Source of the DNA: Sphingobacterium sp. | GTDB lineage: Bacteria; Bacteroidota; Bacteroidia; Sphingobacteriales; Sphingobacteriaceae | DNA length: 64,000 nt | Assembly: GCA_031253985.1 (NCBI GenBank) | Contig: JAIRVH010000206.1 | Coordinates: 40,079-104,078 of the forward strand | Direction of reading: 5' to 3' | Program-made: the position numbers and the translations under genes | Shown here: positions 31,549-53,738 of the stretch, piece after piece | Layout: every line of letters begins with the position of its first letter | Position numbering within the stretch: position 1 is the first letter of the stretch | Notes under the pieces: generated by a model | The model's input: the letters and a program-made list of their open reading frames with translations, nothing else | Database searches by the model: none | Told to the model about the DNA's origin: nothing

Positions 31549-31559
31549 TAAACTAAATA

Positions 31560-33053: not shown

Positions 33054-33080
33054 AAACTGCTAAGATTTAACAATATAAAT

Positions 33081-35602: not shown

Positions 35603-36103
35603 TTAATTCAATCGATATACTTTAAGCTGTTTTTGCAGCTTTTTGCGTACCATATGAATCCTAGTCTTTATTGTGCCTTCTGGCATCTCAAAATAGGATG
35701 CGATCTCGTGGTATTTATAACCATCTAAAAACAACCGAAAGATTTCATAGTTCTCTTCCGTTAAACTACGCATGGCTTTTTCAATATCTTCGGCCACGAA
35801 CTTATTGATGCCCTTATTGAGTTCAGAGGTATTTGTGCTTTCAAGAGCGACGTAATGATCCTGGATTTCAGTAACACGTTTTGCTTTCCTATACTTATTG
35901 ATATAAGTATGTTTCATGATAACATATAACCAGCTCATTAATTTAGGATGCTGAACAAAATTGTCTATAGACTTCATTGCTCTTATCCAGGTCTCTTGGA
36001 TCAAATCTTCCTTTTCATCCGGATCAGCTGTAAATTTAGCAGCAAAATGATTAAGTAAACTTCTTTTCTCGTTAATGAGTACGTTTAAATTGTAGTTGTT
36101 CAT
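35603..36103 (-). CDS. ECF-type sigma-70 family sigma factor, paralog 1 (orphan)
   Basis: 166 aa. EDLIQETWIRAMK (region 2) and YKYHEIASYFEMPEGTIKTRIH (region 4.2). No adjacent anti-sigma. Confidence 0.8.
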   Translation of the reverse strand: MNNYNLNVLINEKRSLLNHFAAKFTADPDEKEDLIQETWIRAMKSIDNFVQHPKLMSWLYVIMKHTYINKYRKAKRVTEIQDHYVALESTNTSELNKGINKFVAEDIEKAMRSLTEENYEIFRLFLDGYKYHEIASYFEMPEGTIKTRIHMVRKKLQKQLKVYRLN

Positions 36104-36514
36104 AGCTTATCCTCTTTCTTGATTCAACTGATTGTTTAAAATGGTTTTACAGTATCAGGGTAACAAGAAAAGTGCTACTTTTAACTCCCAATTTTGCATA
36201 AAAATAAATACCATTGAGCAGGGTAAAAATACTATTTCACCTTTTTTAAAGGCTATAAAGCAAATTTTAGATGCTATTTAGCATGAAAATTAAATAGTGA
36301 ACAAAAAATAAGCAATTAATAAAAAAAGATATTACGGTATTTATTTACTGGTAAAATGTTATAAATACGTTTATCATGGATTTAATTCATTTATTTTTAG
36401 AGCGCATCAATTTTTAATCGTAGAAAAAAATGAACAGTGATTGAATTTAAAATAATTTTTCAAAACAAACCATAATCATTCGAATGCTGTTCTAATGAAA
36501 AAACAAAACAAATT

Positions 36515-36667
36515 ATGGGAAATTTATTGTATATCATTGCTGTTATTTTGGTCATTATCTGGGCCTTTAGCTTTTTTGGAGGTTATGCTACTGGAAATAT
36601 TATCCATGTGCTACTGGTTATTGCCATTATTGTCGTCTTGCTACGTGTTATTCGCGGTGCGGCTTAA
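36515..36667 (+). CDS. lmo0937-family small membrane protein (50 aa)
   Basis: MGNLLYIIAVILVIIWAFSFFGGYATGNIIHVLLVIAIIVVLLRVIRGAA. It is in a different frame from track ORF 36495-36743, and a terminator follows. Confidence 0.7.
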   Translation: MGNLLYIIAVILVIIWAFSFFGGYATGNIIHVLLVIAIIVVLLRVIRGAA

Positions 36668-36694
36668 GGTAAAGCCAAACACTAAAGATGGAAT

Positions 36695-36728
36695 AAAGCC
36701 GGACGTTTGGGATGTTCGGCTTTATTTT
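36695..36728 (+). terminator. rho-independent terminator
   Basis: aaagccgga-loop-ttcggcttt followed by atttt. Confidence 0.65.
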
Positions 36729-36903
36729 AAAAAAATTTTTTAACTCCATGTTAGGCCAATGCTTATTTATAGAGTCAATGAATATGAACGCTATGTTTTG
36801 CGGCAAACGTTTCCTTTGCCACTTGTTTTCAGAATAAAATGGATTTTATTAAGCAGTTGACCAGAATCCATCTGAGTTTCTAACATATAAACTTAAATCA
36901 ACT

Positions 36904-37377
36904 ATGACAAATAATACAGAGATTATGATCCACGCCGCCCGACTGGGCAATGTTGAAGTTCTACGTGAACTGATCCATCAGAAAGTCGATTTAAATACGC
37001 GAGATAGTAAAGGCTATACGGCCTTAATCATCGCCTGTTATAACAATAAGCTGGCCGCAGCACAACTGCTACTGGAAGCCGGTGCCGACGTAAATGCACA
37101 GGATAATGGTGGAAATACGGCGCTGATGGGTGTTGCTTTCAAAGGATATTATGATATTGCCCAATTGTTAATCAGTTATGGCGCAAACTTAAATCTGCAG
37201 CATGGAAACGGTGGTACCGCTCTTATGTTTGCTGCAATGTTTGGCAGAAATGAAATTCTTAAACTTTTACTTGACAATGGTGCAAATAGATCTATACTTG
37301 ACGTTAGAGGCTTGTCGGTGCGAGACTTGGCGGTACAACAGGGTAACGACGTTGCACTTTCGCTGTTACAGCACTAA
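36904..37377 (+). CDS. ankyrin-repeat protein
   Basis: 157 aa. Four ANK repeats (GYTALIIACYNNKLAAAQLLLEAGADVN, GNTALMGVAFKGYYDIAQLLISYGANLN, ...). No signal peptide. Confidence 0.9.
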   Translation: MTNNTEIMIHAARLGNVEVLRELIHQKVDLNTRDSKGYTALIIACYNNKLAAAQLLLEAGADVNAQDNGGNTALMGVAFKGYYDIAQLLISYGANLNLQHGNGGTALMFAAMFGRNEILKLLLDNGANRSILDVRGLSVRDLAVQQGNDVALSLLQH

Positions 37378-37389
37378 AATTTAATTCAT

Positions 37390-37421
37390 AAAATAGCCCG
37401 CTTAAGCGGGCTATTTCTTTT
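37390..37421. terminator. bidirectional terminator between the ankyrin gene and katE
   Basis: aatagcccgc-ttaa-gcgggctatt with T-runs on both strands. Confidence 0.8.
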
Positions 37422-37425
37422 CATA

Positions 37426-39621
37426 CTATGCGGGTACTTTTCTGGATTTTTCGCGCTCCCAAAATCGGTGCTTAGCAATGGCTTTGATAAACTTGTCTGC
37501 TAGGGACTTCGCATCTTTATCAACTATTATACCTTCGTCAAGAACCGTTTCTGCTGAAAATTCCTGGTATATTTTACTGAAAAAATAAGTTGCTTCCAAT
37601 ACGGGACTAGCTTCCACATCTGCAGCAATTGCTTTACAATGCTTGAACGCTTCGTTTAGAAAATGAACTGCATCCGCATTCGACTGCAAAGTAACGACAC
37701 TGTTTTTCCCTCCGGGAATATAGATCGCATCATAGAGTACGGACGCTCCCGTCAAGAAACTTTCCTCGACGGGAATCTGCTTTTTATCTGAGCCCGTAAC
37801 CTGCCCTAACTTGGGCGCAATAACATGGATGATTCCCCCTTCTGCACGAATAGCGTCTGCCACTAGTTTGAATGAATTAGCATCAACGCCGTCTGCAGCA
37901 AGTACGGCAATCTTCCGGCTCTTTATGCTGTCTTTTATGGTATTCTCCATACTTAATGCGGCTGATTTTTTCAATTTTTCCTTTACCTGAATAGGTTCAT
38001 AGTCCGCGGGATCAGCATCCGCAGGAAGACTTTTATTTATGGGCTTTTCAAGCTCTTCTTGAACCTGTAATCCCAAGGCGAATGCAACTTCAGCGGCCAG
38101 CCCCTTATCTACGAGAGACAGTATACCAATCATCCGCTGTCTCACTGGAACTGATTTAACTTTGCCAAGTTCAAAACTAAAAGCATCAATAAGGTGATTT
38201 CTTTCCGGTTCGGATTGACTATTATAGAACAGCCTTGCCTGGCTGAAATGATCGCGGAAGCTTTCACTTCTGGCACGGACTTTTCGAGCATCGATGCGTT
38301 CATGATAGCTTTTAAAACCACCTTCGGCCTCCTTTACCTGCACCGGATCATTATTTCCTAGTGAATTTGGACCATAACTCGTTTTTCCACGATCAATTCT
38401 TTGTCGCATAAATCCGTCACGCTGATTGTTATGCGAAGGACTGATGGGTCTATTAATCGGAATTTCGTGAAAATTGGGACCACCTAACCGAATAAGCTGG
38501 GTGTCTGTGTAGGAAAATAACCGTCCCTGTAACAAAGGGTCATTTGTAAAATCAATACCTGGTACAATATTGCCGATATGAAAAGCAACCTGTTCAGTTT
38601 CGGCGAAGAAATTATCTGGATTGCGATTCAATGTCATTTTTCCAATCGGCCGAACAGGTACAAGTTCTTCAGGAACCAGCTTGGTCGGATCCAATAGGTC
38701 GAAATCATATTTAAATTCGTCAGATTCGGGGATGATCTGTACGCCAAGTTCCCATTCGGGAAAGGCACCGCTTTCAATAGCATCCCAAAGATCTCTCCGA
38801 TGAAAATCGGGATCCTTACCAGATATATTTTGAGCTTCGTCCCATGCGACCGAATGGACTCCAAGCAAAGGCTTCCAATGAAATTTGACAAAATGCGATT
38901 CACCTTTGGCATTGATAAACCGAAAAGTGTGAACACCAAATCCCTCCATCATCCGATAACTTCGCGGTATTGCCCGATCACTCATCAACCACATGACCAT
39001 ATGTGCTGATTCTGGCATCAGGGAAATGAAGTCCCAAAATGTATCATGCGCCGAAGCTGCCTGTGGGATTTCATTGTCAGGTTCAGGTTTGACCGCATGA
39101 ACAAGATCGGGAAATTTCATGGCATCCTGAATAAAAAAGACCGGCATATTGTTGCCGACCAAATCGAAATTACCTTCTTCAGTATAAAATTTGACTGCAA
39201 AACCGCGTACATCGCGGGCTAGATCGGTCGATCCTCTTGATCCAGCAACCGTAGAGAATCGCACAAACACAGGTGTTTCAGTTTCCGTATCATTCAGAAA
39301 ACCTGCTTTTGTCAAATCAGCTAAAGGCTCATATAATTTGAAAACACCATGGGCGCCGGAACCTCTAGCGTGCACCACACGTTCGGGAATACGTTCGTGG
39401 TCAAAATGGGTAATTTTCTCACGGAGAATGAAATCTTCCAGGAGTGTAGCTCCCCGGTCCCCCGCACGCAGGGAGTTTTGATCATCATTGATTTTGACTC
39501 CTTGATCCGTTGTCATCTGCTGACCTGTGGCGTCTGCCGTATGCGGTCTTAACGCGCTGACTTTTCGATTTTCAACTTGTTCAACCTTTTCAGTTTTCAA
39601 ATCTTTCTTTTTCATCATCAT
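37426..39621 (-). CDS. katE: large-subunit (HPII-type) monofunctional catalase with C-terminal DJ-1-like domain
   Basis: 731 aa. FDHERIPERVVHARGSGAHG, RLFSYTDTQLIRLGGPNF, and a C-terminal flavodoxin/DJ-1-like ~150 aa. Confidence 0.95.
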   Translation of the reverse strand: MMMKKKDLKTEKVEQVENRKVSALRPHTADATGQQMTTDQGVKINDDQNSLRAGDRGATLLEDFILREKITHFDHERIPERVVHARGSGAHGVFKLYEPLADLTKAGFLNDTETETPVFVRFSTVAGSRGSTDLARDVRGFAVKFYTEEGNFDLVGNNMPVFFIQDAMKFPDLVHAVKPEPDNEIPQAASAHDTFWDFISLMPESAHMVMWLMSDRAIPRSYRMMEGFGVHTFRFINAKGESHFVKFHWKPLLGVHSVAWDEAQNISGKDPDFHRRDLWDAIESGAFPEWELGVQIIPESDEFKYDFDLLDPTKLVPEELVPVRPIGKMTLNRNPDNFFAETEQVAFHIGNIVPGIDFTNDPLLQGRLFSYTDTQLIRLGGPNFHEIPINRPISPSHNNQRDGFMRQRIDRGKTSYGPNSLGNNDPVQVKEAEGGFKSYHERIDARKVRARSESFRDHFSQARLFYNSQSEPERNHLIDAFSFELGKVKSVPVRQRMIGILSLVDKGLAAEVAFALGLQVQEELEKPINKSLPADADPADYEPIQVKEKLKKSAALSMENTIKDSIKSRKIAVLAADGVDANSFKLVADAIRAEGGIIHVIAPKLGQVTGSDKKQIPVEESFLTGASVLYDAIYIPGGKNSVVTLQSNADAVHFLNEAFKHCKAIAADVEASPVLEATYFFSKIYQEFSAETVLDEGIIVDKDAKSLADKFIKAIAKHRFWEREKSRKVPA

Positions 39622-39764
39622 CGATTTATGGTTTTATAAATTAATAACTTCCTTAAACTTTGGAAAAATTTTGATTGCATGTTTCATCATATACATTCGG
39701 AGAAACAACAAGACTTGTTTCCTTATAGGAACTTTTCCAATCCACTATTCGTTTGTTTTAATTC

Positions 39765-39772
39765 CAAAAGTA
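39765..39772 (-). promoter_or_regulatory. candidate -7 box for katE
   Basis: Plus-strand caaaagta is the reverse complement of TACTTTTG, 144 nt upstream of the katE ATG. Confidence 0.3.
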
Positions 39773-39919
39773 TTTTTAAGGTTTTCCTGGGAAGTTGGAG
39801 TGACTGTTAATCATGTAGCGACTGCTGATCAAGAAAAAGTGTGAGGCGGCAAAAGCGTGTGGAAAAAAAAGGAAATTTAAACGTTTTGAATAAGGCGTTT
39901 AAAATAGATACTACAAAAA

Positions 39920-39964
39920 GGTTCAAACAGAAACAGGAGCCTTGATAGCTCCTGTTTCTGTTTA
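39920..39964 (-). terminator. rho-independent terminator after the phytochrome gene
   Basis: 16-bp stem aaacagaaacaggagc / gctcctgtttctgttt. It separates the kinase gene from katE. Confidence 0.7.
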
Positions 39965-39983
39965 TCCAATAATCACTTTATCA

Positions 39984-42158
39984 TTAAACTTTAAATTTGA
40001 CACAGAAGGTTGTGCCGATATGAAGTTGGCTTTCAACGGTAACTTTTGCATCAAGACGATCTGCTATACGTTTGACGATGGAAAGCCCGATCCCTGATCC
40101 TTCAAAGCCCTGCGAGTTAGGAAGTCGTTTAAAGATTTCGAATATATTACTGTCCTCCTTAATATCCATACCGATCCCATTGTCTTTAATATAGTAATAA
40201 ACTGAATGTCCGTGTTTTTCACTATAAACTTCGACCTTTGGCTGTTCTTTTTTACTGCTATATTTTATCGCGTTTCCGATTAGATTTAAAAACAGCTGAT
40301 ATAAAAGTGTTCTTTCTCCGAGAATTGGCCACGTTTCCCCTAAAACAAACTCCAGCCTTGCGCTTTCAAACTGCTGCTTGCAGCTCTCGAGAATATTGAG
40401 AATTTTGTTTCGAGGATCTATCAGCTCTGTTTTAAAGGCTACATAATTAGACTGGGTAAGCTGATAAACCTTGTCCATCATTTCTGTTATCAATCCGGTG
40501 GCATCCATGATATTCGTTGCCATTTTTCGTAACATCTCTTTCGGAAGATCATCTTTTATCAACATCATCTGTGCAGCAAGCTTTATCGACGAAAGGGGGT
40601 TTTTAAGATCGTGGGTCAATGTATAGCCAAATGTGTCTAAGGCATTATTTGATCTTACGAGTTCCTTGTTAAGCTGGGCAATCTCACCTCCCCGTTGCGC
40701 AATAGCCTGTTGCGTTATCTGTGCGACTTTCTCCATAAAAGAAAGCTCTGCTTTCTTCCATTTAACAGATTTGCCTTTCATCTTCTCACGCCAAGCTTCA
40801 AATGATGTCCTGGGTGACGGAAACTTTACTTCCCTTTCAGGATCATAATGATATATTTTTTCGGGTTTTCCTGCCCACACATCTTCGTAAACATGCTCTT
40901 TACGAAATAAATAGATATGCCATTTATTGCTGGGAAGAATATTTATCCGGAGAATACCCGGGAATATGACCGATTGTTCCAGAGCATCATCCCCGTAAAC
41001 AAAATTTGACGTAAAAAATAAGTCACCATCGCCTTGTGTTTCTATATACTGATCAATCTGACGCTGCTGTAATTCTGCTGGTACCTCACCCCAGGTTTTG
41101 TAACCACGATCGTGTTTGATCATCAATCCATCGGCACCAACAATTTCCAAGATTTGGGGTGCAAAGCGCTCAAGCACGACTCCAATATCACTGTTTACTA
41201 ATAATTCAGACTTCAGATCTCGTTCCATCACGCCCATTATCGTTTGGGCCACAAGGTTTTCTTTTTGATGTTCTGAAAGGTAATAGTTGATGGCGTATTG
41301 TGTCAAGAACGCGCATAAATGACGTTGGGCAAGGTCAACATTTAAAGGCAGACTATTCTGACAGGCCACCAATCCCCAAAGTTTTCCTTCGATAACGATC
41401 GAAAAACTGGCGCTGGCGCGCGCGCCAGCATTCTTAAGATACTGTAAATGTACCGGAGACAATGCCCTGAGGCTACAACGCGTAAGATCAATTTCTCCCG
41501 GCTCCAAGCCTTTTATAGCAATAGTCGGCGCATCGATATCCGCAACATGCCGCGCAAGGAATTTGACGTAGAGTGCTCTTGCTTGCGCAGGAATATCAAA
41601 TTCTGGATAGCGATATCCCATCAGTGAGCTCATTCCATCTGCCAGCGACTCTGCAATTACCTGCCCGCTATTGTCCTCTTCGAAACGGTATACCATAACA
41701 CGATCAAAACCAATAATCTGGCGTATCAATACCGTTAATGATTGCCAGGCATTGCCATGCTGCTCTTCTAGATATTTCGCATAATAGAATAAACGGGTCG
41801 CTTTTAAATGATTTTCACTACAGATCTCAACTTCAACGTATGTTTTGTCATCATACTGGTAGATGCTTAGATAATAATCCACACCTTTGATACGGATACG
41901 TTCCACAAAACGGGTAAATATCTCGCCTGTGATCTGTCTTTCAATCTTTTTGAGATTCCACTCTTGCTCTGATGATAACAAAGGCAATAGCTCATCGATC
42001 GATCTCCCCAAGATTTCCTTTATAGGAATTTCCAGTACGGAAGATAGGTTCTCACTTGCGGCAATACATCCGCCCTCATCAAAAATACAAAGGAAACCGA
42101 AAAATTGAATTTTACCACATAAGTGGATTTCTTCTTCGTGACACTCCAGTTGACGCAT
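39984..42158 (-). CDS. bacteriophytochrome-type sensor histidine kinase (PAS-GAF-PHY-HisKA-HATPase)
   Basis: 724 aa. N-terminal CHEEEIHLCGKIQFFG (compare C-x-x-EPIHxxGxIQPHG), GAF DIPAQARALY and SPVHLQYL, PHY tongue WAG...PRTSF, H-box HDLKNPLSS, and N/G1/G2 boxes NLIGNAIKYS, DNGIGM, GSGIGLS. Confidence 0.85.
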   Translation of the reverse strand: MRQLECHEEEIHLCGKIQFFGFLCIFDEGGCIAASENLSSVLEIPIKEILGRSIDELLPLLSSEQEWNLKKIERQITGEIFTRFVERIRIKGVDYYLSIYQYDDKTYVEVEICSENHLKATRLFYYAKYLEEQHGNAWQSLTVLIRQIIGFDRVMVYRFEEDNSGQVIAESLADGMSSLMGYRYPEFDIPAQARALYVKFLARHVADIDAPTIAIKGLEPGEIDLTRCSLRALSPVHLQYLKNAGARASASFSIVIEGKLWGLVACQNSLPLNVDLAQRHLCAFLTQYAINYYLSEHQKENLVAQTIMGVMERDLKSELLVNSDIGVVLERFAPQILEIVGADGLMIKHDRGYKTWGEVPAELQQRQIDQYIETQGDGDLFFTSNFVYGDDALEQSVIFPGILRINILPSNKWHIYLFRKEHVYEDVWAGKPEKIYHYDPEREVKFPSPRTSFEAWREKMKGKSVKWKKAELSFMEKVAQITQQAIAQRGGEIAQLNKELVRSNNALDTFGYTLTHDLKNPLSSIKLAAQMMLIKDDLPKEMLRKMATNIMDATGLITEMMDKVYQLTQSNYVAFKTELIDPRNKILNILESCKQQFESARLEFVLGETWPILGERTLLYQLFLNLIGNAIKYSSKKEQPKVEVYSEKHGHSVYYYIKDNGIGMDIKEDSNIFEIFKRLPNSQGFEGSGIGLSIVKRIADRLDAKVTVESQLHIGTTFCVKFKV

Positions 42159-42384: not shown

Positions 42385-42422
42385 AGAAAATAAAAAAGCT
42401 AGGTTGGAAAGGCCCTAGCTTT
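42385..42422 (-). terminator. rho-independent terminator of the trehalose operon
   Basis: The minus strand reads aaagctaggg-loop-cctagctttttt atttt. Confidence 0.7.
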
Positions 42423-42551
42423 AAAACTTTCTTCATGACCGGACAAGCAGTCTTTATTAATGAACAATACTTTTTACCACTTTGTTTTGATTTTTCTTCT
42501 CATATTCACAATTACCCATTCAATCGACAGCAATGATCCTTGTAAGCCAAT

Positions 42552-44375
42552 TTATTTGCATACAGAGGTATAAACATTTCCTGACCAGGGTAATAAAGAC
42601 ACGTTTGCGCTATCAGAAGCAACAGTATCCATAGAAATCCCGTTAGTCATTTTATACGTATCAAATAATAATTTCCATTGCAAATCTGTAGATAGCTTTA
42701 TTTGCTGTGTATGGTCCGAAAAGTTCATGATGATACACATACAGCTATCGTCTTTTTTGACGTGTAGGAGAAGTATATTTTTATCATGCAAACTTTCAAC
42801 AGTCAACTCATCCCGCTGCAGATTTTTCATTAATGGATTCGTTTTCCGGAATGCTATCAATGATTTATAATACAACAAATGTTGCTGATATGATTCAAGA
42901 TTAAGTTCGTCCCAATCCAGGACCGCCTTTCTAAATATCGCTTCATCCTGCGGGTCAGGAATTTGAGAATCGGTAAGAAAATCTCTAAACTCTTGTTTTC
43001 TACCCGCTCTCACCAACTCAACAAGTTCGGGATCACCATGACTGACAAAATAAGGAAATGCGCTTTCTGTGCCCCACTCCTCGCCCATGAACAGTAAAGG
43101 AAGATAAGGGGACATGAAAACGGCAAAAGCCATGAGCCGCGTTCTTTCTTGCGGGTAAAGCGAGGCGGCACGATCGCCCAACATTCTATTGCCGACCTGA
43201 TCATGGTTTTGACAGAAAACAATGAATCGATCACCGCTAATGCCGTTGGCGTCTGTTCCAAAGAATTTTTCTCGATGGAAAGAATAATTACCATCAAAAA
43301 CGTAAGCTTTTTCATAGGCCTTTGCGAGATCATCCAATCCGTTAAACTCCTCATAATACCCTCTTTTGGCTTCGCCTACTGCTACTCGCAGCGCGTGATG
43401 AAATTCATCTAGCCATTGAGCATCCATACCAAAGCCATTTTTTGCCAAAGGGTCCAGAAATCGTCTATCATTGAGATCACACTCAACGAATAGATAACGG
43501 TCTTTACCTGATGTAGCGATAATATCATCAGTTTCTTTACGAATTTCCTGCAGGATATGGTGCGCACTAAAATCTTTAATTGCGTGTACAGCGTCCATCC
43601 GAAGAGCATCGATATGAAAGTCTTCCAGCCACATCCGTACATTATTTAGCACAAAGTCCCGCTGCCCATGACAGAATCGGTCGTCATAGTTGAGGGCCTC
43701 TCCCCAAGGGGTGTGATATTTATCAGTAAAATACGGGCCGAAATTAGGCAAATAATTTCCCTCTGGTCCGATGTGATTATAAACTACATCCAAAATAACA
43801 GCCATATTAACCTCATGGCAAGCATCAACCAGCCTTTGGAGTTCAGCGGCACCACCATAAGAATCCTGTACGGCAAACGGAAAAACACCATCGTAACCCC
43901 AATTTCTTTCACCGGGAAACTGCGCGACCGGCATGATTTCTATCGCCGTGATACCCAAATTTTTTAGGTAGGGGATCTTCCTAATGACCCCATCAAAATC
44001 ATGAGATGAAGTAAATGTACCCACATGAAGCTCGTAGATAATGAAATCGGACTGAGCTGCTGGTTGATAACTTTGGTCGGTCCAGGGGAATTCAAGATCG
44101 ACAGCTTGAGAAGGCCCATGAACCCCCTTTGGCTGTGCGCGTGAGGCCGGATCAGGAAATTCTTTGCCGTCCACACTAATTTTATAGAAATCTCCAGCAG
44201 CGATTAAATTACTTTCTACGTACCAATAGCCATATTGCTCCGGATGAAGTGTAATCTCCTCACCATTCTCAGCAAGTCGACAACTCACATTTTTTGCCAT
44301 GGGTGCCCATACACGAATCTGACATAGGTCACCCCTGAAACGAATTCCAATGTGATTAACGCCTGTTTTCCTCAT
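42552..44375 (-). CDS. treZ: malto-oligosyltrehalose trehalohydrolase
   Basis: 607 aa, GH13. PDPASRAQPKGVHGPSQAVD, ILDVVYNHIGPEGNY, DALRMDAVHAI. Confidence 0.9.
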   Translation of the reverse strand: MRKTGVNHIGIRFRGDLCQIRVWAPMAKNVSCRLAENGEEITLHPEQYGYWYVESNLIAAGDFYKISVDGKEFPDPASRAQPKGVHGPSQAVDLEFPWTDQSYQPAAQSDFIIYELHVGTFTSSHDFDGVIRKIPYLKNLGITAIEIMPVAQFPGERNWGYDGVFPFAVQDSYGGAAELQRLVDACHEVNMAVILDVVYNHIGPEGNYLPNFGPYFTDKYHTPWGEALNYDDRFCHGQRDFVLNNVRMWLEDFHIDALRMDAVHAIKDFSAHHILQEIRKETDDIIATSGKDRYLFVECDLNDRRFLDPLAKNGFGMDAQWLDEFHHALRVAVGEAKRGYYEEFNGLDDLAKAYEKAYVFDGNYSFHREKFFGTDANGISGDRFIVFCQNHDQVGNRMLGDRAASLYPQERTRLMAFAVFMSPYLPLLFMGEEWGTESAFPYFVSHGDPELVELVRAGRKQEFRDFLTDSQIPDPQDEAIFRKAVLDWDELNLESYQQHLLYYKSLIAFRKTNPLMKNLQRDELTVESLHDKNILLLHVKKDDSCMCIIMNFSDHTQQIKLSTDLQWKLLFDTYKMTNGISMDTVASDSANVSLLPWSGNVYTSVCK

Positions 44376-44389
44376 ATACCAGTTCCGTG

Positions 44390-46498: not shown

Positions 46499-46506
46499 CT
46501 TACTAT

Positions 46507-49500
46507 TTAACGATTGTATAATTTTGTGTAGTCAATTAATTTTTCCTGAATTTTTGAAGCAAACGCTCCCTTTTGCATGCGCCATAGCCAATTTCCTGCT
46601 GTACTGGCGGGCCTATTCATGCGGCAAGATCCATCAAGATTTAAAATGTCTTGCATCGGCACAATGACTGTATCTGCGACAGAGGAGTACAGTGACCGCA
46701 TAAGGATTTCATTTATATTTCCGCTTTCAAGCATTTGCCCGAAATAGTTATGAAGGTTTTCTATGCTCCATAAATCCAGATCTTGGTTATACCAAGAAAG
46801 CGTGGTATTATTATCATGCGTACCGGTATAAGCAACCAAATTTTGGTTATACTGATGTGGAATGTGGGGTGAGCTTGACATATCATTACCGAAAGCAAAT
46901 TGAAGAACAGCCATACCGGGAAAGTTAAATTGATCACGTAGCTGATATACTTTAGCATCTATATCACCAAGGTCTTCAGCAATAAAAGGCATATTATCTA
47001 AATTTATACTGACCTTCTCAAAGAAATCTGCGCCGGGCCCCTCAGACCATGCCCCATTTTTAGCGGAAGTTTCTTCGATGGGAACTTCCCAATAAGAAGA
47101 AAACGCTCTAAAATGATCAAGCCTCAACTTATCGAATAGTGCACAGTTATGTGATAGCCGCTCAACCCACCATTGGTAGCCATCTTGTTTAAGCGATGCC
47201 CAATTGTAGGTCGGCATGCCCCATAATTGGCCTTCTGCATTGAAGTAGTCGGGTGGTACTCCAGCAACATATTTCATCTCTGCATCTGCTCCAAGTGAGA
47301 AATACTGGGGATTGGCCCACACGTCGGCAGAATCGTAAGCTACATAAAATGGGATATCACCAATAAATCTTACTCCATAATCATGCGCATATTTTCTTAA
47401 GGCATCCCATTGTCTGAAAAACAAGTATTGAAACCACTTTTCTTTTTGCAATTCATGTTTGCATTTCGCTGCGAAATCGTTCAGTGCAGTGCTATCACGC
47501 TGTCTGTAAATCAGCGGCCATTCATACCAAGGACGATTTCTATGTTTATTTTTTAGCACTTTAAAAAGTGCATAATCGTTAAGCCATGAAGATTCCTTGG
47601 CAGCAAATTCAGAAAATTCGCGGAGAGGCTCCGGTGGCAGGCGGTCAAATGCCCTCTCCAAAAGTTTGTATTTCGAGCGGGTTATTTCTGCAAAATCCAG
47701 TATTTTATGATTCTTCCTCTTTAGCGCTTTTAGTTCATTTTTCTCCAGTAAGCCTACTCTTAATAAGTCTTTTAAATCGATAAATAATGGATTTCCAGCC
47801 CTACTACTGAGTGTACTGTAAGGTGAATGGCACTGCGATTCATCGGTAGGTCCCAGCGGAAGGACCTGCCACCAGCTTTGGCCACTATGGTGCAACTGTC
47901 GAACAAAACGACGAGCTTCAGGTCCCAAATCACCTATCCCGCAGGACGACGGCAATGAGCTGATATGCATTAAAATACCTGAACTCCGCTTAGGTAAACG
48001 AGCTTCGTATTTTAAGATCGCGAGCGGTAGATCCCCAAAAATAGCGTTTACCGGAATTTCTGTTCCATCACCTTCTACGTCAGAGAAAATATGCCGCCAG
48101 TTCACGGTGTGGTTTGTGGAAAGATGTACTTTGGTGTCTGACCAGTCAAAAGAGCCGGATACGAATTTCGAGACTTTACCTATTGCCGCAAGATGTAAAG
48201 GAAGAACTACCACCAACCAGTTTTCTCCTGACCGACGCGCGAATGCCAGAATATGTCTACGGTACCGACCACTCACTTTAAGCGGAATATAACTACTCTC
48301 AGAGGAAAGGGCGTTATCATCCCTTCTGAGTTTTATTAATTCCTTTACTAACCATAATTTAATATTCCCATCGTATCTATTTCGCCATAAATATTGACTT
48401 CGCTCCTCTCTGGCTATGTTCTCAATCGCATGTAGGAGATTTATATTTAATTGATAATCTATCGGCCGTCGATTGTCTGGATCAACAAAGCTATAGTTCC
48501 AAAGTTCCGAACCCTGATAAATGTCAGGGACACCGGGACAGGTAAACTTTAAGATTTGCTGTGTAAGGGAATTTAAGATTCCGAAATCGGCAACCACTCC
48601 AATAAACTGATAAAAGCTGGTAAAAAAAGGGCGGTTTTTATCAAGCAGAAACGAGGCGAATTCCTGAACTGAAGTCTCATAGACTAAATCTGGATTCTCC
48701 CAAGTCGATCGTTCTTTTCCTTCGCGGAGATATTTAACCAAGTAATCTAAAAAGCGCTTTTCAAATGCTACATTATCCTGTGCATCTTGTTTTCCCATTG
48801 GATAAGAAGCAACTAGCGACTGATAAATAAAATATTCATCATTCGGGTGCGGAAGATCCTTTCGATATTCATTCCATACGATATCTTGCCAAATCTGAAC
48901 CTGTTTAGTCCATTTTTTGGCCATAGCAGTGAGTACTAAAAGGCGACTGCGTGAATCTTCACCGCGTTTGGTGTCGTGTGTTGAACTTGCATTAATTGAC
49001 AGCGGCCAGTCTCTTTGCCTATCCTGCATCAACCTGTGGAATTTCTTTTTACTAAGACCAGAATTATCCGGGTGATCACCGACTTCATTGTGCCCGATAA
49101 AACTGTTATAGGTATACATCAAAGTATCCTCCACACCCTTCGCCATTACCGGTCCTGTCAATTGCATACAACGTAGAAAAAAATCAGCCAAAGCAGTTCG
49201 GTTTGGCGATTCAGAATTTACCTGCGCTCGTTCAAAAAGGTTCCGAAACTGATCAAGCATTTCTTTGTCCAGTTTTGGCTTTCTATTCAACTTTTCAAAA
49301 AGTGAAGACAAAAGTTCAAAACTGGACGTGGACAAAGGAAAACGGTCATCATAGACTCGGTAAACGGGGAATAGTGCAAGAAAAGATTTCAAAATATCCC
49401 GTATGCTATCATATTTATCTTGACTGTTAACTCCGATAAGAGTTGTCAGTAACCTAGTGAGGTTGTCAAGCTCGCCCTGCATATAAACGCTAAGAATCCT

Positions 49501-50709
49501 GCTCTTTTTTATATATTGTTCTTTTTTAATCGACAGTTTTTCTCCTGTAATTTTCGTATAATACTTATCCAATACTTTCTTTCCTGACTTATAGGAACAA
49601 ACATTATTGCAATCTGACAAAAAATCGTATCCTGTTGTTCCCTGAATAGGCCATTCGAGTGGAAGCTTCTCTCCCCGCTCCAATATTTTTTCAGCAATTA
49701 TATAGACTTTTGGACCGACCGTTTTCCTCAAATTATACAGGTATTCGTTCGGATTATATAGCCCGTCCATATGATCAATCCGCAATCCATCGATCAGCCC
49801 CTCTTTAACGAGTTCTTTTACTAGCTGATGAGACTGCTTGAATACATCTTCGTCCTGAACATTTAAACAAATCAGTTCGTTAACCGTAAAAAAACGCCTA
49901 AAGTTTATCCTTTCATTCGTAAACCACCAAGGACATAGTTCATAATGCTGATGAGCAACCAATTCCTGCAAGCGTTTCGGATCATTATTAAACTGGTCAA
50001 GAATAAGCTTCAATTTCTCATCTGATAGGTCTTTGAAAATGTGAGCACGCAACTGTTTCCATCCTTCAATATCTCCATTGGCCTGAGCCGTATTTACTTG
50101 TACCAAAAGACCATTAAAATCAGGCTGTGTTTCCTTCAAATAATCTTCGAGGATGAAACAATAAGACTCAGGTGAAAGTGGATAATGGTTCTCCTGAAAG
50201 GAAAGGTGAAGAAAGTTGTCCAGAAAAACGAGGTTGATGTCACGGTTTGCTATTGTTTCCTCCAAAGTCCTGCCCAGGATAGGAACCATTAATTTTCCTT
50301 TCTCAAATAGATTAGAGCTATAACAGGTATCAAAAAAACTTCGATACTTGGATGACTCTCCAAATTCGAGCAGGTTCATGAGCCATTTATTTGCGGGATG
50401 AAACGCCATATGGTTGGGAACAATATCCTGCAACCATTTCATCTTGTAGTTGTCCAGTTGTTTCTTAATAGCTCTGAGTTCCTCTAAGGTGCCCAACTCA
50501 CTATTTATCTGATTCATATTGACACCATCGTAACCATGCATACTTCCCGGTGTTGACTGTAGAATAGGCGCAGCATAAATAGTATCGATGCCCAACTCGC
50601 TCAAGTAAGGGATTATTTCTTTGAAATCTGAGAAGTTAAATTCTTTATGAAACTGAATTCTGTAAGTAATATGTGGCTCATTAATGGATAGATTTCTATT
50701 CGTCTGCAT
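46507..50709 (-). CDS. treY: fusion protein: malto-oligosyltrehalose synthase (N-terminal ~900 aa) + 4-alpha-glucanotransferase GH77 (C-terminal ~490 aa)
   Basis: 1400 aa. N-terminus TYRIQFHKEFNFSDFKEIIPYLSELGIDTIYAAPILQSTPGSMHGYDGVN (TreY). From about nt 47985 downwards, SGILMHISSLPSSCGIGDLGPEARRFV...WWQVLPLGPT and DHFRAFSSYWEVP (MalQ). Confidence 0.85.
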   Translation of the reverse strand: MQTNRNLSINEPHITYRIQFHKEFNFSDFKEIIPYLSELGIDTIYAAPILQSTPGSMHGYDGVNMNQINSELGTLEELRAIKKQLDNYKMKWLQDIVPNHMAFHPANKWLMNLLEFGESSKYRSFFDTCYSSNLFEKGKLMVPILGRTLEETIANRDINLVFLDNFLHLSFQENHYPLSPESYCFILEDYLKETQPDFNGLLVQVNTAQANGDIEGWKQLRAHIFKDLSDEKLKLILDQFNNDPKRLQELVAHQHYELCPWWFTNERINFRRFFTVNELICLNVQDEDVFKQSHQLVKELVKEGLIDGLRIDHMDGLYNPNEYLYNLRKTVGPKVYIIAEKILERGEKLPLEWPIQGTTGYDFLSDCNNVCSYKSGKKVLDKYYTKITGEKLSIKKEQYIKKSRILSVYMQGELDNLTRLLTTLIGVNSQDKYDSIRDILKSFLALFPVYRVYDDRFPLSTSSFELLSSLFEKLNRKPKLDKEMLDQFRNLFERAQVNSESPNRTALADFFLRCMQLTGPVMAKGVEDTLMYTYNSFIGHNEVGDHPDNSGLSKKKFHRLMQDRQRDWPLSINASSTHDTKRGEDSRSRLLVLTAMAKKWTKQVQIWQDIVWNEYRKDLPHPNDEYFIYQSLVASYPMGKQDAQDNVAFEKRFLDYLVKYLREGKERSTWENPDLVYETSVQEFASFLLDKNRPFFTSFYQFIGVVADFGILNSLTQQILKFTCPGVPDIYQGSELWNYSFVDPDNRRPIDYQLNINLLHAIENIAREERSQYLWRNRYDGNIKLWLVKELIKLRRDDNALSSESSYIPLKVSGRYRRHILAFARRSGENWLVVVLPLHLAAIGKVSKFVSGSFDWSDTKVHLSTNHTVNWRHIFSDVEGDGTEIPVNAIFGDLPLAILKYEARLPKRSSGILMHISSLPSSCGIGDLGPEARRFVRQLHHSGQSWWQVLPLGPTDESQCHSPYSTLSSRAGNPLFIDLKDLLRVGLLEKNELKALKRKNHKILDFAEITRSKYKLLERAFDRLPPEPLREFSEFAAKESSWLNDYALFKVLKNKHRNRPWYEWPLIYRQRDSTALNDFAAKCKHELQKEKWFQYLFFRQWDALRKYAHDYGVRFIGDIPFYVAYDSADVWANPQYFSLGADAEMKYVAGVPPDYFNAEGQLWGMPTYNWASLKQDGYQWWVERLSHNCALFDKLRLDHFRAFSSYWEVPIEETSAKNGAWSEGPGADFFEKVSINLDNMPFIAEDLGDIDAKVYQLRDQFNFPGMAVLQFAFGNDMSSSPHIPHQYNQNLVAYTGTHDNNTTLSWYNQDLDLWSIENLHNYFGQMLESGNINEILMRSLYSSVADTVIVPMQDILNLDGSCRMNRPASTAGNWLWRMQKGAFASKIQEKLIDYTKLYNR

Positions 50710-50904
50710 GGCTTGTTGGATTTCTTTTAGGTCAGAACGTCAGCCAGCAATTTTAGTTCATTTGACTTTCAAAAAAATATGTGAAAATATGCAGCAGCTC
50801 CTGAAAATAATAAAGCAAAAAAATAATTTAAAATTAAAACGAATCTGTTTGAGCTACGTTCTAACTATACTTCTTCAATAATTGCAGTTTTAAATTATTA
50901 TAAC

Positions 50905-51387
50905 ATGAAAAAAATAGGAATTACGTTTTCTGCTTTTGATCTGCTACACGCGGGTCACATCAAGATGCTCGAAGATGCCAGAGAACAATGCGACTTTCTG
51001 ATCTGCGGTCTGCAAACCGATCCAACACTTGATCGGCCAGAGAAAAACAAGCCAACACAATCTGTATTTGAACGCTATATGCAACTAAAAGCATGTAAAC
51101 ATGTCGACATGATCATCCCCTATGCCACTGAACAAGATTTGGAAGATGTATTGCGTTCTTTCAAAATCCATGTCCGAATCTTAGGTGATGAGTATATGGA
51201 CAAAGCGTTTACGGGTAGGCAATACTGCGAAGAGAAAGGTATACAACTGTATTTCAATAGACGAGAAAATAGATTCTCGAGTTCATCTTTACGAAGAATA
51301 ATTGCATCGAAAGAGAAAAGTAGCAAAGGTGCAGTAGTGAGTATAAATGAAGGGGTTAATTACGCGTTAAAGCGCATAAATGCATAA
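50905..51387 (+). CDS. cytidylyltransferase-like nucleotidyltransferase (TagD/RfaE-domain-II-like), copy 1
   Basis: 160 aa. FSAFDLLHAGHIKML (HxGH) and C-terminal RFSSSSLRRI. Confidence 0.75.
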   Translation: MKKIGITFSAFDLLHAGHIKMLEDAREQCDFLICGLQTDPTLDRPEKNKPTQSVFERYMQLKACKHVDMIIPYATEQDLEDVLRSFKIHVRILGDEYMDKAFTGRQYCEEKGIQLYFNRRENRFSSSSLRRIIASKEKSSKGAVVSINEGVNYALKRINA

Positions 51388-51402
51388 GCTAATAATAAAC
51401 AT

Positions 51403-51861
51403 ATGATTATAGGTATTATTTTCGGCGTATTCGACATGTTACATGTAGGCCACATTGTTGCCTTACAGGAAGCAAAAAGTCAATGTGATTATCTTATTGT
51501 AGGCCTTAAAACCGATTCAAAGATTCAGAATGAAGATGATTATGATACGGCACAAACGATGGTTGAAAGGTTTATCAAGTTGCAGGGCTGCCAATTTGTG
51601 GACGAAATCATTCCGTTTGAATCGGAAGATGACATTACTGATATGCTTCAGTCGTTGCCGGTACACAAGTATTTTATAGGGGAAGAATATAAATCAGTGG
51701 ATTTTTCAGGTAGGGATTATTGTATTGCAGAAGGAGTTGAAATTTGCTATACCAAGAATAAAAACCGCTTTTCAAGTCAATCCCTTCGAAAAATCGTCAG
51801 TGAAAAAGAAATAGAAAAGGGGAAGATACTTTCAGCTCAAGTTTTAAATCCTACTCCGTAA
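51403..51861 (+). CDS. cytidylyltransferase-like nucleotidyltransferase, copy 2 (tandem paralog)
   Basis: 152 aa. FGVFDMLHVGHIVAL and RFSSQSLRKI. Collinear with copy 1. Confidence 0.75.
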   Translation: MIIGIIFGVFDMLHVGHIVALQEAKSQCDYLIVGLKTDSKIQNEDDYDTAQTMVERFIKLQGCQFVDEIIPFESEDDITDMLQSLPVHKYFIGEEYKSVDFSGRDYCIAEGVEICYTKNKNRFSSQSLRKIVSEKEIEKGKILSAQVLNPTP

Positions 51862-51943
51862 ATGCTCTTCAAGGATATCTTTCAAATCAATAAGTGAATG
51901 ATAATGAGCAGCTGCTTTGTAAATAAAAACAATATCATTAGCT

Positions 51944-52360
51944 ATGGAAAGAATCAATATTGGTATTATTACAAATGTAAGAAAGCTGCTTTTTGCATAC
52001 CGCATACTTTTTTCAGCGCATGAACAAAGTCCTGCAGAGGTCGTACTTGAAGCATTTTCGCTAGATTCCATTAGCAGCAATTCACATTTCAATGAAAAAC
52101 CTGAATTGCTGCTACTTGACTATCGTCTCGTATTTAAGAACACCCTACTTTTCTTTTCGCTAATTGACCACTTTTACCCCCATACAGTTATATTATTAAT
52201 TGTTGATCAAGCTCATCTCCAGGAAGCTAAGCGGTGTAAAACTTTTATTCACTCATTTTTATCCCCTAACTTGGACGTTCTCCAGCTTTTCAAACTGATT
52301 AGAAATTTCAGCTTAGTGACGCCCTCTGTTCAATCACATTTACAGACAAATAAGAATTGA
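51944..52360 (+). CDS. stand-alone degenerate receiver-like (pseudo-REC) protein
   Basis: 138 aa with an alternating beta/alpha pattern. ELLLLDYRL keeps the phospho-acceptor-like Asp, but the N-terminal acidic pair (IGIITN), the Thr/Ser (ILLIVD) and the Lys (FLSPN) positions are substituted. Fold call is by eye only. Confidence 0.4.
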   Translation: MERINIGIITNVRKLLFAYRILFSAHEQSPAEVVLEAFSLDSISSNSHFNEKPELLLLDYRLVFKNTLLFFSLIDHFYPHTVILLIVDQAHLQEAKRCKTFIHSFLSPNLDVLQLFKLIRNFSLVTPSVQSHLQTNKN

Positions 52361-52667
52361 GTTACTCTTATCTCCTGCCGTTTCTCCATGCTTGCGTATA
52401 AATAACCTGTTTTGAATAGCTTGGCGATGTAAATCCTAACAATGAAAATTTTATACGGTTTTAAAATGTTGAAGAATTTAATAATCATCTCGAACATAAA
52501 TTATATCACATTGATAATGAATTGTTTAACATGAAATCAAGTATAAATCACATTTTCCGTAATATTTACTTAAAATCGGCTTTGACTCTTTTTGGGTCTC
52601 TGTTTTAGGCAAAATTTGCACTGTTGTTGTTCTAAAAAAGCTGTATTTATGACATAAAAGAAACAAC

Positions 52668-53162
52668 ATGCAACATATCCAGATAAATTCATTTTTTCAA
52701 GAGAAAAGAAGCTTACTTAAAAATTTCGCTTCTCAATTCACGTCAGACCCAGAGATCAAGAATGACCTTATACAGGACACAATGGTCAACGCGTTAAAAT
52801 CCATAGAGAAGATTATAGATCACCCCAAGGTAGGCTCATGGTTATATGTAATTATGCGCAACATCTATATTAATCAATATAGAAAAACAAAACGGACGGA
52901 GAGTTATCACAATGAATATGCAGCTTTGAACGTTACGGATTCCATTTCAATTAATTCAAGCACGAGCAAGTTTATCCTGGATGATATTCAAAAAGCGTTA
53001 CGCCAGCTTTCGGAAGAAAATTACGAAATTTTCAATATGTTCCTGGAAGGTTATAAATATCACGAAATAGCTGATTATATGCAGATGCCTGAAGGTACAA
53101 TAAAAACACGCATTCATTTCATCCGTAAGACGATGAAAAAACAGTTATCAATTTATCATTGA
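52668..53162 (+). CDS. ECF-type sigma-70 family sigma factor, paralog 2 (orphan)
   Basis: 164 aa. Aligns end to end with the 35603-36103 product (EKRSLL, DLIQDT, SWLYVIM, YINQYRK, EENYEIF, GYKYHEIADYMQMPEGTIKTRIH). Confidence 0.8.
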   Translation: MQHIQINSFFQEKRSLLKNFASQFTSDPEIKNDLIQDTMVNALKSIEKIIDHPKVGSWLYVIMRNIYINQYRKTKRTESYHNEYAALNVTDSISINSSTSKFILDDIQKALRQLSEENYEIFNMFLEGYKYHEIADYMQMPEGTIKTRIHFIRKTMKKQLSIYH

Positions 53163-53243
53163 TATAAAAGAGCAATTTAAACTACAAAAACAATAAATAG
53201 TAAAACTATTCACAAATAGATCTTGTTATTTAAACAACATCAC

Positions 53244-53263
53244 TAAATAAATAAATAAATAAA
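53244..53263 (+). repeat. (TAAA)5 tetranucleotide microsatellite
   Basis: taaataaataaataaataaa ends 4 nt before the ATG at 53268. Confidence 0.9.
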
Positions 53264-53267
53264 TATT

Positions 53268-53738
53268 ATGATTTCGAACAAAACATTACTCGCTTCTTTG
53301 GCGACTGCAGCAATTCTAGTTTCATGTAACAATCAAACACCACAAGAAAAAGCTGCAGAGAAAATGGAACATGCAGAGGAAAAAGCAGCTGACGCGAATG
53401 AGGAGGCCATGAAAACCTCAGAAGACGCCGCTACAAAGGATGCGGAAGCAGTTGTTTATTCAAATAAAGCCGCGGCCAATGCAGCTATAGCTTCAGTGCC
53501 TGCTCCAGTGCTCTCCAATGATAAAGCTAAAGAGCTTTATACAAAATTGGGCAAAACATGGGTAGACCGCATCAACGCAGAGTCTACAGACAAAGCACTG
53601 GATAAGGAAAAATCTTTATTGGACGTTAAAAATGAGATTGAAAAAAATCTTGCGGAAGGAAAAATATCCGCTTCGGATAAAGATAATATCATGAAATATC
53701 AATCTGATTGCTTAGCAGCTATAAAGGCAGCACTGTAG
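53268..53738 (+). CDS. helical Ala/Lys/Glu-rich lipoprotein
   Basis: 156 aa. Lipobox LVSC. Downstream of sigma paralog 2. Confidence 0.6.
   Translation: MISNKTLLASLATAAILVSCNNQTPQEKAAEKMEHAEEKAADANEEAMKTSEDAATKDAEAVVYSNKAAANAAIASVPAPVLSNDKAKELYTKLGKTWVDRINAESTDKALDKEKSLLDVKNEIEKNLAEGKISASDKDNIMKYQSDCLAAIKAAL

Follow-up and report, generated by a model that had tools for sequence, protein, structure and literature searches.

The window analyzed here is a 64,000-nucleotide (nt) stretch of DNA from Sphingobacterium sp. (contig JAIRVH010000206.1, positions 40,079 to 104,078), in which two genes for extracytoplasmic function (ECF) sigma factors flank genes for a catalase, a bacteriophytochrome, and trehalose synthesis. 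We describe this locus and the clade of sigma factors to which both proteins belong, a clade that may well direct a general stress response in the Sphingobacteriaceae. The two genes, sig1 (35603 to 36103, minus strand) and sig2 (52668 to 53162, plus strand), encode minimal ECF sigma factors of 166 and 164 amino acids (aa), respectively, with Sigma70_r2 and Sigma70_r4_2 as their only Pfam domains. The proteins are identical at 90 of 163 residues (55%; BLASTP E value, 7e-72) without a single gap, which bears out an earlier note on this DNA that had aligned them end to end by eye, and all of the shared blocks quoted there are present (EKRSLL, DLIQ[ED]T, SWLYVIM, YIN.YRK.KR, EENYEIF, GYKYHEIA, and MPEGTIKTRIH). 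The DNA-recognition regions, SWLYVIM..YIN.YRK and MPEGTIKTRIH, are nearly identical. Both proteins surpass the cutoff of the ECF superfamily model TIGR02937 of NCBIfam (83 and 79 bits; cutoff, 42.9), and no equivalog or subfamily model of NCBIfam reaches its cutoff (SigY, 87 versus 194 bits; PG0214 type, 68 versus 130 bits). Sphingobacterium assemblies encode sigma proteins that match these exactly or at 99% identity.

No anti-sigma-like gene adjoins sig1 or sig2, as had also been claimed earlier. The small open reading frames (ORFs) beside the sigma genes encode one membrane peptide and one lipoprotein. The latter is a lipoprotein-like protein of 156 aa with a signal peptide and a lipobox, encoded 3' of sig2 (53268 to 53738, plus strand; followed by a terminator at 53765 to 53812); it matches no Pfam family and is not anti-sigma-like. 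sig1 is convergent with a DapB-like gene, with a terminator in between. Among the remaining ORFs of the window of at least about 110 aa, Pfam scans detected no anti-sigma, PhyR-like, MerR/B12, or heme oxygenase gene.

The genes between the sigma factors were all confirmed by Pfam and NCBIfam as the earlier note had listed them, except for a degenerate receiver that is taken up below. Starting from sig1, they encode a small membrane peptide of the lmo0937 family (36515 to 36667, plus strand; NCBIfam NF033488, 57 bits against a cutoff of 30; Pfam DUF5670), an ankyrin-repeat protein (ank; 36904 to 37377, plus strand; Pfam Ank_2, 1e-31), the large-subunit, HPII-type catalase KatE (37426 to 39621, minus strand; Pfam Catalase, 6e-184, with a Catalase_C/DJ-1 domain), and a bacteriophytochrome histidine kinase, BphP, with the Pfam domain order PAS_2-GAF-PHY-HisKA-HATPase (39984 to 42158, minus strand). 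A trehalose-from-glycogen operon follows (42552 to 50709, minus strand), in which a TreY-MalQ fusion (46507 to 50709; NCBIfam TreY, 799 bits, with a MalQ domain also found by Pfam), GlgX (44390 to 46498; Pfam and NCBIfam), and TreZ (42552 to 44375; NCBIfam, 643 bits, and Pfam) are encoded. The last unit before sig2, cyt1-cyt2-orf138 (50905 to 52360, plus strand), begins with two cytidylyl/adenylyl-transferase-like proteins of Pfam family CTP_transf_like, Cyt1 (50905 to 51387) and Cyt2 (51403 to 51861).

In a neighbor-joining tree of 173 sigma sequences, sig1 and sig2 fall in a separate Sphingobacteriaceae clade, here called the stress clade, that consists mostly of Sphingobacterium proteins and includes a Pedobacter branch. 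Its sister group is formed by ECF sigma factors of Bacteroidota that are linked to carotenoid (crt) clusters, and the closest relatives beyond Sphingobacterium (33 to 43% identity) are located in such clusters. These relatives came from a scan of one genome per species with a clade alignment, after which neighboring ORFs were clustered. The gene content of the crt loci was checked by Pfam: a MerR protein with a B12-binding domain is encoded immediately upstream of the sigma gene in 33 of 80 loci, and some 40 of the 80 (41 by count) have crtI and crtB on the downstream side, accompanied by crtZ, lycopene cyclase, and ispH; in Pedobacter the crt-linked sigma gene sits between murB and the crt genes. 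This is the gene order of the light-induced LitR/CarH-LitS carotenoid circuit, and the crt-linked family likewise has no anti-sigma genes.

The neighborhoods of the clade were compared among loci, labeled with L numbers, that came from ten sigma homologs, three BphP homologs, one metagenome scan, and one BLAST panel. Trehalose synthesis genes lie within 9 kb of 13 of 24 clade sigma genes, by way of two unrelated pathways (TreYZ or OtsAB), a sensor kinase is found near 16 of 24, and a phytochrome-family kinase is found near 6 of 24, counts that are not phylogenetically independent. The arrangement of the window is repeated exactly in L171 (Sphingobacterium multivorum group). The close relatives L083 and L094 retain treYmalQ-glgX-treZ, the lmo0937-type gene, and the sigma gene and lack BphP; katE and ank are also present in L083 and absent from L094, and L095 holds a sig2 ortholog with the same neighbors. 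Other members of the clade have as neighbors an OtsA-OtsB fusion, GH15, CsbD, DUF7218, DUF2383, topoisomerase IB (TopoIB), Ku, and a phytochrome-like kinase (L085, L092, and L093); OtsAB, an aldo-keto reductase, DUF4142, a short-chain dehydrogenase/reductase (SDR), a phytochrome, DUF421, and SurE (L088); Rho_N, TopoIB, DUF2383, DUF421, SDR, Ku, LigD, and a Dyp peroxidase (L089); or DJ-1, PNPOx, and CinA (L090). The pattern of two paralogs that flank a trehalose module is repeated independently in L003 (Sphingobacterium faecale), where clade genes at 10001 to 10495 and 18860 to 19552 bracket a block of about 9 kb with SDR, OtsAB, GH15, DUF7218, and TopoIB, and Ku lies just beyond it. The pairing of ank with katE occurs in both Sphingobacterium and Pedobacter, and in L053 and L124 (Pedobacter) the pair is near a clade sigma gene. 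The linkage of the clade to the kinds of genes named in the earlier note is thus conserved.

Two-component genes recur in these neighborhoods. A HisKA_3 kinase and a NarL-type (REC-GerE) regulator are encoded directly upstream of, and divergently from, the clade sigma gene in L002, L003, L007, and L089, and a REC-GerE regulator alone is directly upstream in L087. The protein of 243 aa encoded beside the latter (L087, 8923 to 9654, minus strand) resembles a HisKA_3-type dimerization domain in which the phospho-accepting His is apparently replaced (YFRDELAQ), and it may be a degenerate kinase. In L084 and L091 the sigma gene is followed by a REC protein of 122 aa and a PAS/GAF kinase, and L001 has a PAS kinase with a REC protein of 125 aa. 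Genes for bacterial eRF1-like (baeRF) proteins also recur near clade sigma genes (33482 to 34567, minus strand, in the window; L002, L088, and L171).

In searches for a promoter motif common to these genes, bipartite k-mer enumeration over the upstream regions of the window returned only AT-rich noise, and expectation-maximization under the zero-or-one-occurrence-per-sequence (ZOOPS) model, applied to 97 upstream regions of stress genes, converged on poly-A and terminator-like GCTGC motifs. The elements CGTAYTTNTA, AAACGTATTT, AAACGTTT, and WAWACGTTTWT were not enriched in the window. A motif of the form AAAC...(C/T)GTTC was seen in the aligned orthologous upstream regions of cyt1, otsAB, ank, and katE. 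Such an arrangement, with AAC in the -35 box, GTT in the -10 box, and about 17 nt between the two, is typical of ECF promoters. Formulated as AAAC-N15-17-nGTTC (equivalent to AAAC-N16-18-GTTC), the motif has 20 gene-oriented matches in 184 upstream regions (34.3 kb), against 1.5 +/- 1.2 in mononucleotide shuffles (maximum, 5 in 300) and 1.9 in first-order Markov sequences (maximum, 8). With six alternative spacer windows between these boxes, 0, 1, 1, 2, 2, and 6 matches were obtained. A shared, spacing-specific motif of the ECF type is therefore present, with 20 matches compared to the approximately 1.5 to 1.9 expected. Of the three parts of the refuting outcome named in the earlier note, two were checked in silico, missing linkage and a missing promoter motif, and neither was borne out. 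About 8 of these 20 matches are circular, because they inspired the pattern, which was first spotted by eye in four of the upstream sets that were then counted; the other 12 are noncircular and precede lmo0937-type genes and genes for small proteins, LigD, PNPOx, and others.

The motif is also specific in position. When the whole window was scanned with a position weight matrix (PWM) on both strands, coding regions included, all seven matches with a score of at least 16 were intergenic, correctly oriented, and 23 to 154 nt from a start codon, and they precede lmo0937, u199, the M20 peptidase gene, u71, katE, u67, and cyt1. The highest score of the window (22.5) belongs to AAAC-N17-TGTTC at 36467 to 36492 (plus strand), 23 nt before the start of lmo0937, with orthologous sites in L083, L094, and L171. 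The katE site, AAAC-N17-AGTTC (39729 to 39754, minus strand; 108 nt before the start; score, 17.0), is conserved in L083 and L171, and the cyt1 site, AAAC-N16-CGTTC (50837 to 50861, plus strand; 44 nt before the start; score, 16.3), is conserved in L001, L095, and L171. The variant GAAC-N16-CGTTC lies about 25 nt before the start of treY-malQ (50735 to 50759, minus strand) and is conserved among the window, L001, L094, and L095. A weak motif before ank (36802 to 36832) overlaps a hairpin and is clear in L083 and L171. Held-out loci carry the motif before otsAB, lmo0937, cyt1, Ku, DUF7218, katE, and ank and upstream of bphP. Within the promoter region of katE (39762 to 39729, minus strand), a conserved inverted repeat, GGAAAAGTTCC, overlaps the -10 box and is also present in the L083 and L171 orthologs; GGAAAAGTTCC might provide one more operator site, such as that of a peroxide regulator.

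The density of the motif per 100 kb is 7.45 at stress-clade loci, 2.24 in the Pedobacter branch, 1.63 at crt-clade loci, and 0.56 at outgroup loci, so that the surroundings of the clade sigma genes exceed those of the sister-clade sigma genes about 4.6-fold and those of the outgroup sigma genes about 13-fold. This association raises the possibility that sigma factors of the clade recognize the motif.

The sigma genes themselves lack the regulon motif, which does not occur in the 250 to 330 nt before sig1, sig2, and their orthologs. About 19 of the sigma orthologs and paralogs share a different upstream architecture, in which the blocks are fixed in position: a proximal block, T[A/T]GCA[C/T]-N5-TTG[T/C], 50 to 78 nt before the ATG; CGTATTT about 57 nt above it (CCGTAATATTTAC in genes of the sig2 type); and TAAATACC about 110 nt above the CGTATTT block. 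The control region of sig1 (36164 to 36369, minus strand) includes TAGCACTTTTCTTG (36164 to 36177), AGTATTT (36227 to 36233), AAATACC (36336 to 36342), and CGTATTT (36363 to 36369), and that of sig2 (52557 to 52629, plus strand) includes CCGTAATATTTAC (52557 to 52569) and TTGCACTGTTGTTG (52616 to 52629) with the same architecture and spacing as at sig1. Matches to a PWM of the proximal block are confined to sigma genes among the 184 upstream regions, and we rejected the sigma upstream blocks as a shared regulon promoter on this ground. TAAATACC occurs 11 times where 1.5 occurrences are expected and also stands before some kinase and stress genes. The proximal block was further considered as a sigma-54 promoter; its spacing fits, but it has kept neither the invariant GG nor the invariant GC doublet. 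MAFFT aligned the full set of sigma upstream regions too poorly for a hidden Markov model to be built.

Taken together, these in silico results lead us to propose, with a probability of roughly 55%, that an anti-sigma-less, transcriptionally controlled clade of ECF sigma factors within the Sphingobacteriaceae drives a general-stress regulon from AAAC-N16-18-GTTC promoters. A sigma factor of the clade would direct RNA polymerase to these promoters, and the regulon would provide oxidative, desiccation/osmotic, and DNA damage protection. Its members in the window would be katE, lmo0937, treY-malQ/glgX/treZ, cyt1-cyt2-orf138, genes for small hydrophilic proteins at 13 to 18 kb, and probably bphP. 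We infer that the activity of the sigma factor is set mainly by its amount, through the conserved control region of about 250 nt; this mode is favored by the missing anti-sigma gene, the sigma-specific upstream region, and the LitS-like ancestry of the clade. The sensor kinases that recur as neighbors are likely inputs and would act through a DNA-binding regulator, for which a NarL-type protein is the obvious candidate. sig2 starts 307 nt downstream of the cyt1-cyt2-orf138 unit, and only a weak hairpin intervenes. As it lies downstream of the motif-bearing cyt1 operon, sig2 may also be read from the regulon promoter, which would create a hierarchy or feed-forward from sig1 to sig2, like that reported for EcfG paralogs.

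It might instead be supposed that a different sigma factor, encoded elsewhere, reads AAAC-N17-GTTC and that sig1 and sig2 have other targets or are redundant minor regulators. The sigma genes lack the motif and hence any autoregulatory signature, and AAC/CGT-like promoters are generally known to be used by many ECF groups, both of which would agree with this explanation. So would the number of ECFs in Bacteroidota genomes, about 22 on average (PMC7826278). We nevertheless regard it as unlikely in view of the 4.6- and 13-fold differences in motif density described above and of the recurrence of the motif-sigma association in at least five gene arrangements.

Several other points weigh against the proposal of a clade-driven regulon and are reflected in its probability. 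In addition to the circularity of some motif matches and the nonindependence of the synteny counts, the motif density of the Pedobacter branch is raised only modestly (2.2 per 100 kb), and the upstream blocks of the sigma genes are not tied to any regulator. The link between motif and clade is drawn from genomic association, and Sphingobacterium genomes carry many ECFs. It is also possible that an anti-sigma factor is encoded elsewhere or that control is posttranslational.

The bacteriophytochrome of the window is canonical. It matches solved BphP proteins, including 8uph, over its full length, with ECHEEEIH aligned on QCDREPIH, and its N-terminal Cys aligns with their biliverdin (chromophore)-binding Cys. 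bphP is flanked by treZ and katE with terminators and spacers (among them a terminator with an 18-bp stem at 39924 to 39964, between the katE motif and bphP), and neither a response regulator nor a heme oxygenase gene adjoins it; this agrees with the earlier description of a phytochrome kinase without a partner regulator. bphO, for heme oxygenase, did not turn up among the scanned genes of the window. BphP is present in L171 and missing from the sigma module of L083 and L094; in L172 (Sphingobacterium spiritivorum) its gene adjoins katE, and the 10 kb around it hold no sigma gene. In L173 (Chryseobacterium gambrini, CP075682), a protein 58% identical to that of the window is encoded among an IS21 transposase/IstB pair and resolvase and GIY-YIG genes; this position among mobile-element genes suggests that BphP is horizontally mobile between classes of Bacteroidota. 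The idea that the sigma factors have a conserved partner in canonical BphP was rejected, since L083 and L094 do not have it and L172 and L173 show no linkage, although it is present in L171.

The spacer between treZ and bphP holds a regulon-type motif about 304 nt upstream of the bphP start (42462 to 42487, minus strand; PWM score, 14.8; 16.0 for the L171 site). Because this motif precedes the gene, BphP may be an output or feedback element of the regulon instead of an input. Within 42387 to 42487 (minus strand), the motif is followed by about 70 nt that hardly differ between the window and L171 and that end in the hairpin AGCTAGG-N10-CCTAGCT and a T-run (minimum free energy, -18.5 kcal/mol; z score, -2.1). 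The stretch is either the terminator of the treZ operon or a putative sigma-dependent small RNA of about 65 to 70 nt (about 42455 to 42390).

A second family of phytochrome-like kinases is encoded 2 to 7 kb from other clade sigma genes and beside Ku (L085, 15765 to 17939; L087, 3043 to 5211; L088, 12468 to 14646; also L092 and L093). These proteins are 28% identical to the BphP of the window and have no N-terminal Cys, and PHY is the only domain on the precomputed Pfam record. The element TTTTTCGTATATTTA, which is similar to the CGTATTT block of the sigma upstream regions, stands about 35 nt before the ATG in L085, L087, L092, and L093 (one variant, in L093). With two different phytochrome-family kinases associated with the clade, a light link stays plausible, whichever way the signal would flow.

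PhyR acts on EcfG-type sigma factors through NepR, and the earlier note had suggested a loosely similar wiring in the window, with the product of orf138 (51944 to 52360, plus strand), directly 5' of sig2, as a degenerate receiver. The designation is statistically unsupported. The protein is a genus-restricted orphan, with homologs confined to Sphingobacterium; it has no Pfam or NCBIfam match even at an E value of 10, its AlphaFold2 model is a low-confidence fold (mean pLDDT, the predicted local distance difference test, 39.7), and a profile search of PDB returned only noise, with nothing relevant. Profile-profile comparison with receiver domains by hhalign gave a probability of 11.9% and a weak but in-register alignment, in which an invariant D59 falls on the phospho-acceptor Asp, the acidic pair is lost, and the Lys is replaced by Pro. 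Since no NepR- or PhyR-like gene was found among the scanned ORFs of the window, orf138 is not demonstrable as a receiver, and the linkage of BphP is variable, the PhyR-NepR-EcfG-like wiring is not upheld.

A broader version of this idea is control by a partner switch or receiver, in which a receiver, either single-domain or degenerate, is phosphorylated by BphP or a PAS kinase and then binds, stabilizes, or frees the sigma factor. It would fit the stand-alone receivers beside clade sigma genes in L084 and L091, the PAS kinase and REC protein of L001, and the location of orf138 and the conserved Asp in its alignment, and it has a Bacteroidota precedent in Porphyromonas, where PorX acts on SigP (PMC7826278). 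Set against these points are the lack of a family match, the pLDDT, and the hhalign probability of Orf138, the missing NepR- and PhyR-like genes, and the fact that most sigma neighborhoods are without receivers; the conserved sigma-specific upstream DNA is also better explained by transcriptional control. Receiver-mediated control of the clade thus appears improbable. What stands of the dedicated stress regulon of the earlier note is a regulon around an anti-sigma-less ECF clade, supported by synteny and the motif; the PhyR-like pseudo-receiver part is unsupported.

The regulon proposed for the clade may extend to a second stress island. An orphan NarL-type response regulator (REC and GerE domains by Pfam; 12351 to 13007, minus strand) is the only other two-component gene among the scanned ORFs of the window; it is 23 kb from the sigma gene and 82% identical to a copy in L083 that lies 9 kb from the sigma gene. 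The island around it (11.7 to 20.6 kb) encodes REC-GerE, DUF421, Metallophos, DJ-1, small hydrophilic proteins, DUF4230, and a methyltransferase, and its stretch from 13294 to 18366 combines the DUF421, DJ-1/PfpI, and Metallophos genes with motifs before u199 (13294 to 13319, plus strand; PWM score, 21.9), u83 (17245 to 17277, plus strand; a relaxed match), u67 (17970 to 17995, minus strand; 16.9), and u71 (18076 to 18101, plus strand; 18.6). The island is contiguous with the sigma gene in L083, from which it follows that the window holds a single module whose two parts stand about 15 kb apart. The intervening block (about 20700 to 35520) reaches from the methyltransferase gene to sig1 and has the look of an insertion or rearrangement; it contains MarR-GNAT, ClpP, glyoxalase, HEAT protein, M20 peptidase, cNMP-binding protein, SnoaL, GH30, DUF3575, baeRF3, and DapB-like genes. 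A tRNA-His (GTG) at 19269 to 19343 (plus strand), between the DUF4230 and methyltransferase genes, is the sole Rfam/ARAGORN match in the window.

The block that parts the islands in the window and not in L083, together with the variable presence of BphP and its location among IS21 and resolvase genes in L173, might be taken to mean that there is no dedicated circuit and that a variable island has gathered stress genes, kinases, and ECFs by chance or horizontal transfer. This explanation is disfavored, and we consider it very improbable: the motif enrichment is spacing specific, motif sites are kept before orthologous genes in held-out genomes, the upstream architecture of the sigma genes is conserved, and trehalose genes of two unrelated pathways recur beside different paralogs.

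General stress responses have been defined around SigB in Firmicutes, RpoS in Gammaproteobacteria, and EcfG in Alphaproteobacteria. Our literature searches found no equivalent for Bacteroidota and no description of such a circuit, in agreement with the earlier note. The system that most resembles the one proposed for the stress clade is EcfG-PhyR-NepR (ECF15). The EcfG regulon of Sphingomonas melonis, as defined by experiment, includes catalases, a TreY/MalQ/TreZ/GlgX cluster, Ku, TopoIB, GSP26, and MscS, with the promoter GGAAC-N17-20-GTT (PMC6599016), and EcfG is often present as paralogs that are reported to have hierarchical roles (PMC7083833). Both systems have ECF paralogs and similar regulon families, and AAAC/GAAC-N16-18-GTTC is close to the EcfG promoter, a likeness that would be one of resemblance and not of family membership. 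Sensor kinases, including photoreceptors, feed EcfG, and sensor kinases recur beside the clade sigma genes. The systems differ in phylum, in that neither a NepR anti-sigma factor nor a PhyR sigma mimic was found among the scanned ORFs of the window, in that the regulon motif is missing before the clade sigma genes (no autoregulation), and in that the nearest relatives of the clade are carotenoid-cluster sigma factors and not EcfG.

The light-induced LitR/CarH-LitS circuit of Streptomyces is reported to involve an ECF without an anti-sigma factor that is controlled by transcription (PMC11519972). The stress clade shares with it the missing anti-sigma gene and a plausible link to light, and the sister clade shows the order of MerR/B12 regulator, sigma factor, and crtI-crtB. 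Unlike that circuit, the scanned window has neither a MerR/B12 regulator nor crt genes, the neighbors are stress genes, and the photoreceptor is a phytochrome kinase and not a B12 repressor.

Transcriptionally controlled ECFs also include SigE-CseBC, SigQ-AfsQ1/Q2 (ECF39), HrpL (ECF32), and SigH of Porphyromonas gingivalis (ECF114) (PMC8999054). These likewise have no anti-sigma factor, the sigma gene being driven by another signaling system, and the HisKA_3 kinase and NarL-type regulator directly upstream in L002, L003, L007, and L089 would suit the SigE-CseBC type; unlike that type, the window has no adjacent two-component pair and only the orphan REC-GerE protein. As at hrpL, the spacing is that of a sigma-54 promoter in the proximal block of the clade sigma genes, but this block departs from both invariant doublets.

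Several output families of Sphingobacterium sigma neighborhoods are also common to SigB of Bacillus and Listeria, whose outputs, as the regulons are generally known, include KatE, CsbD, YdaD-type SDR, YdaG/GSP26 (PNPOx-like), YfkM (DJ-1/PfpI), and lmo0937-type peptides. SigB differs as a group 3 sigma factor under an RsbV/RsbW partner switch, and its sigma family and promoter are unrelated.

A more far-reaching interpretation, which we offer only tentatively and consider rather doubtful as a whole, is that the clade is the master regulator of the Bacteroidota general stress response. It would have diverged from a light-induced carotenoid sigma factor, would still be wired to light through phytochrome-family kinases, and would combine a novel enhancer/promoter of sigma-54-like spacing on the sigma gene with an EcfG-like promoter before a convergently assembled regulon of catalase, trehalose, Ku-LigD, and small-protein genes. 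If true, almost the entire stress regulon and promoter logic of EcfG would have been assembled convergently, minus the partner switch, and in Sphingobacterium of soil and clinical origin light sensing would be tied to protection against desiccation and oxidative stress. The locus offers a testable candidate in the form of a sigma clade, a predicted promoter, a predicted core regulon, a control region of the sigma genes, and candidate sensors that include two different phytochrome-family kinases. The system would work like an EcfG-type response yet stands apart from EcfG in phylogeny, in autoregulation, and in the NepR/PhyR pair, and the most fitting description is a proposed ECF general-stress circuit of the Sphingobacteriaceae that has no anti-sigma partner and is probably controlled by transcription.

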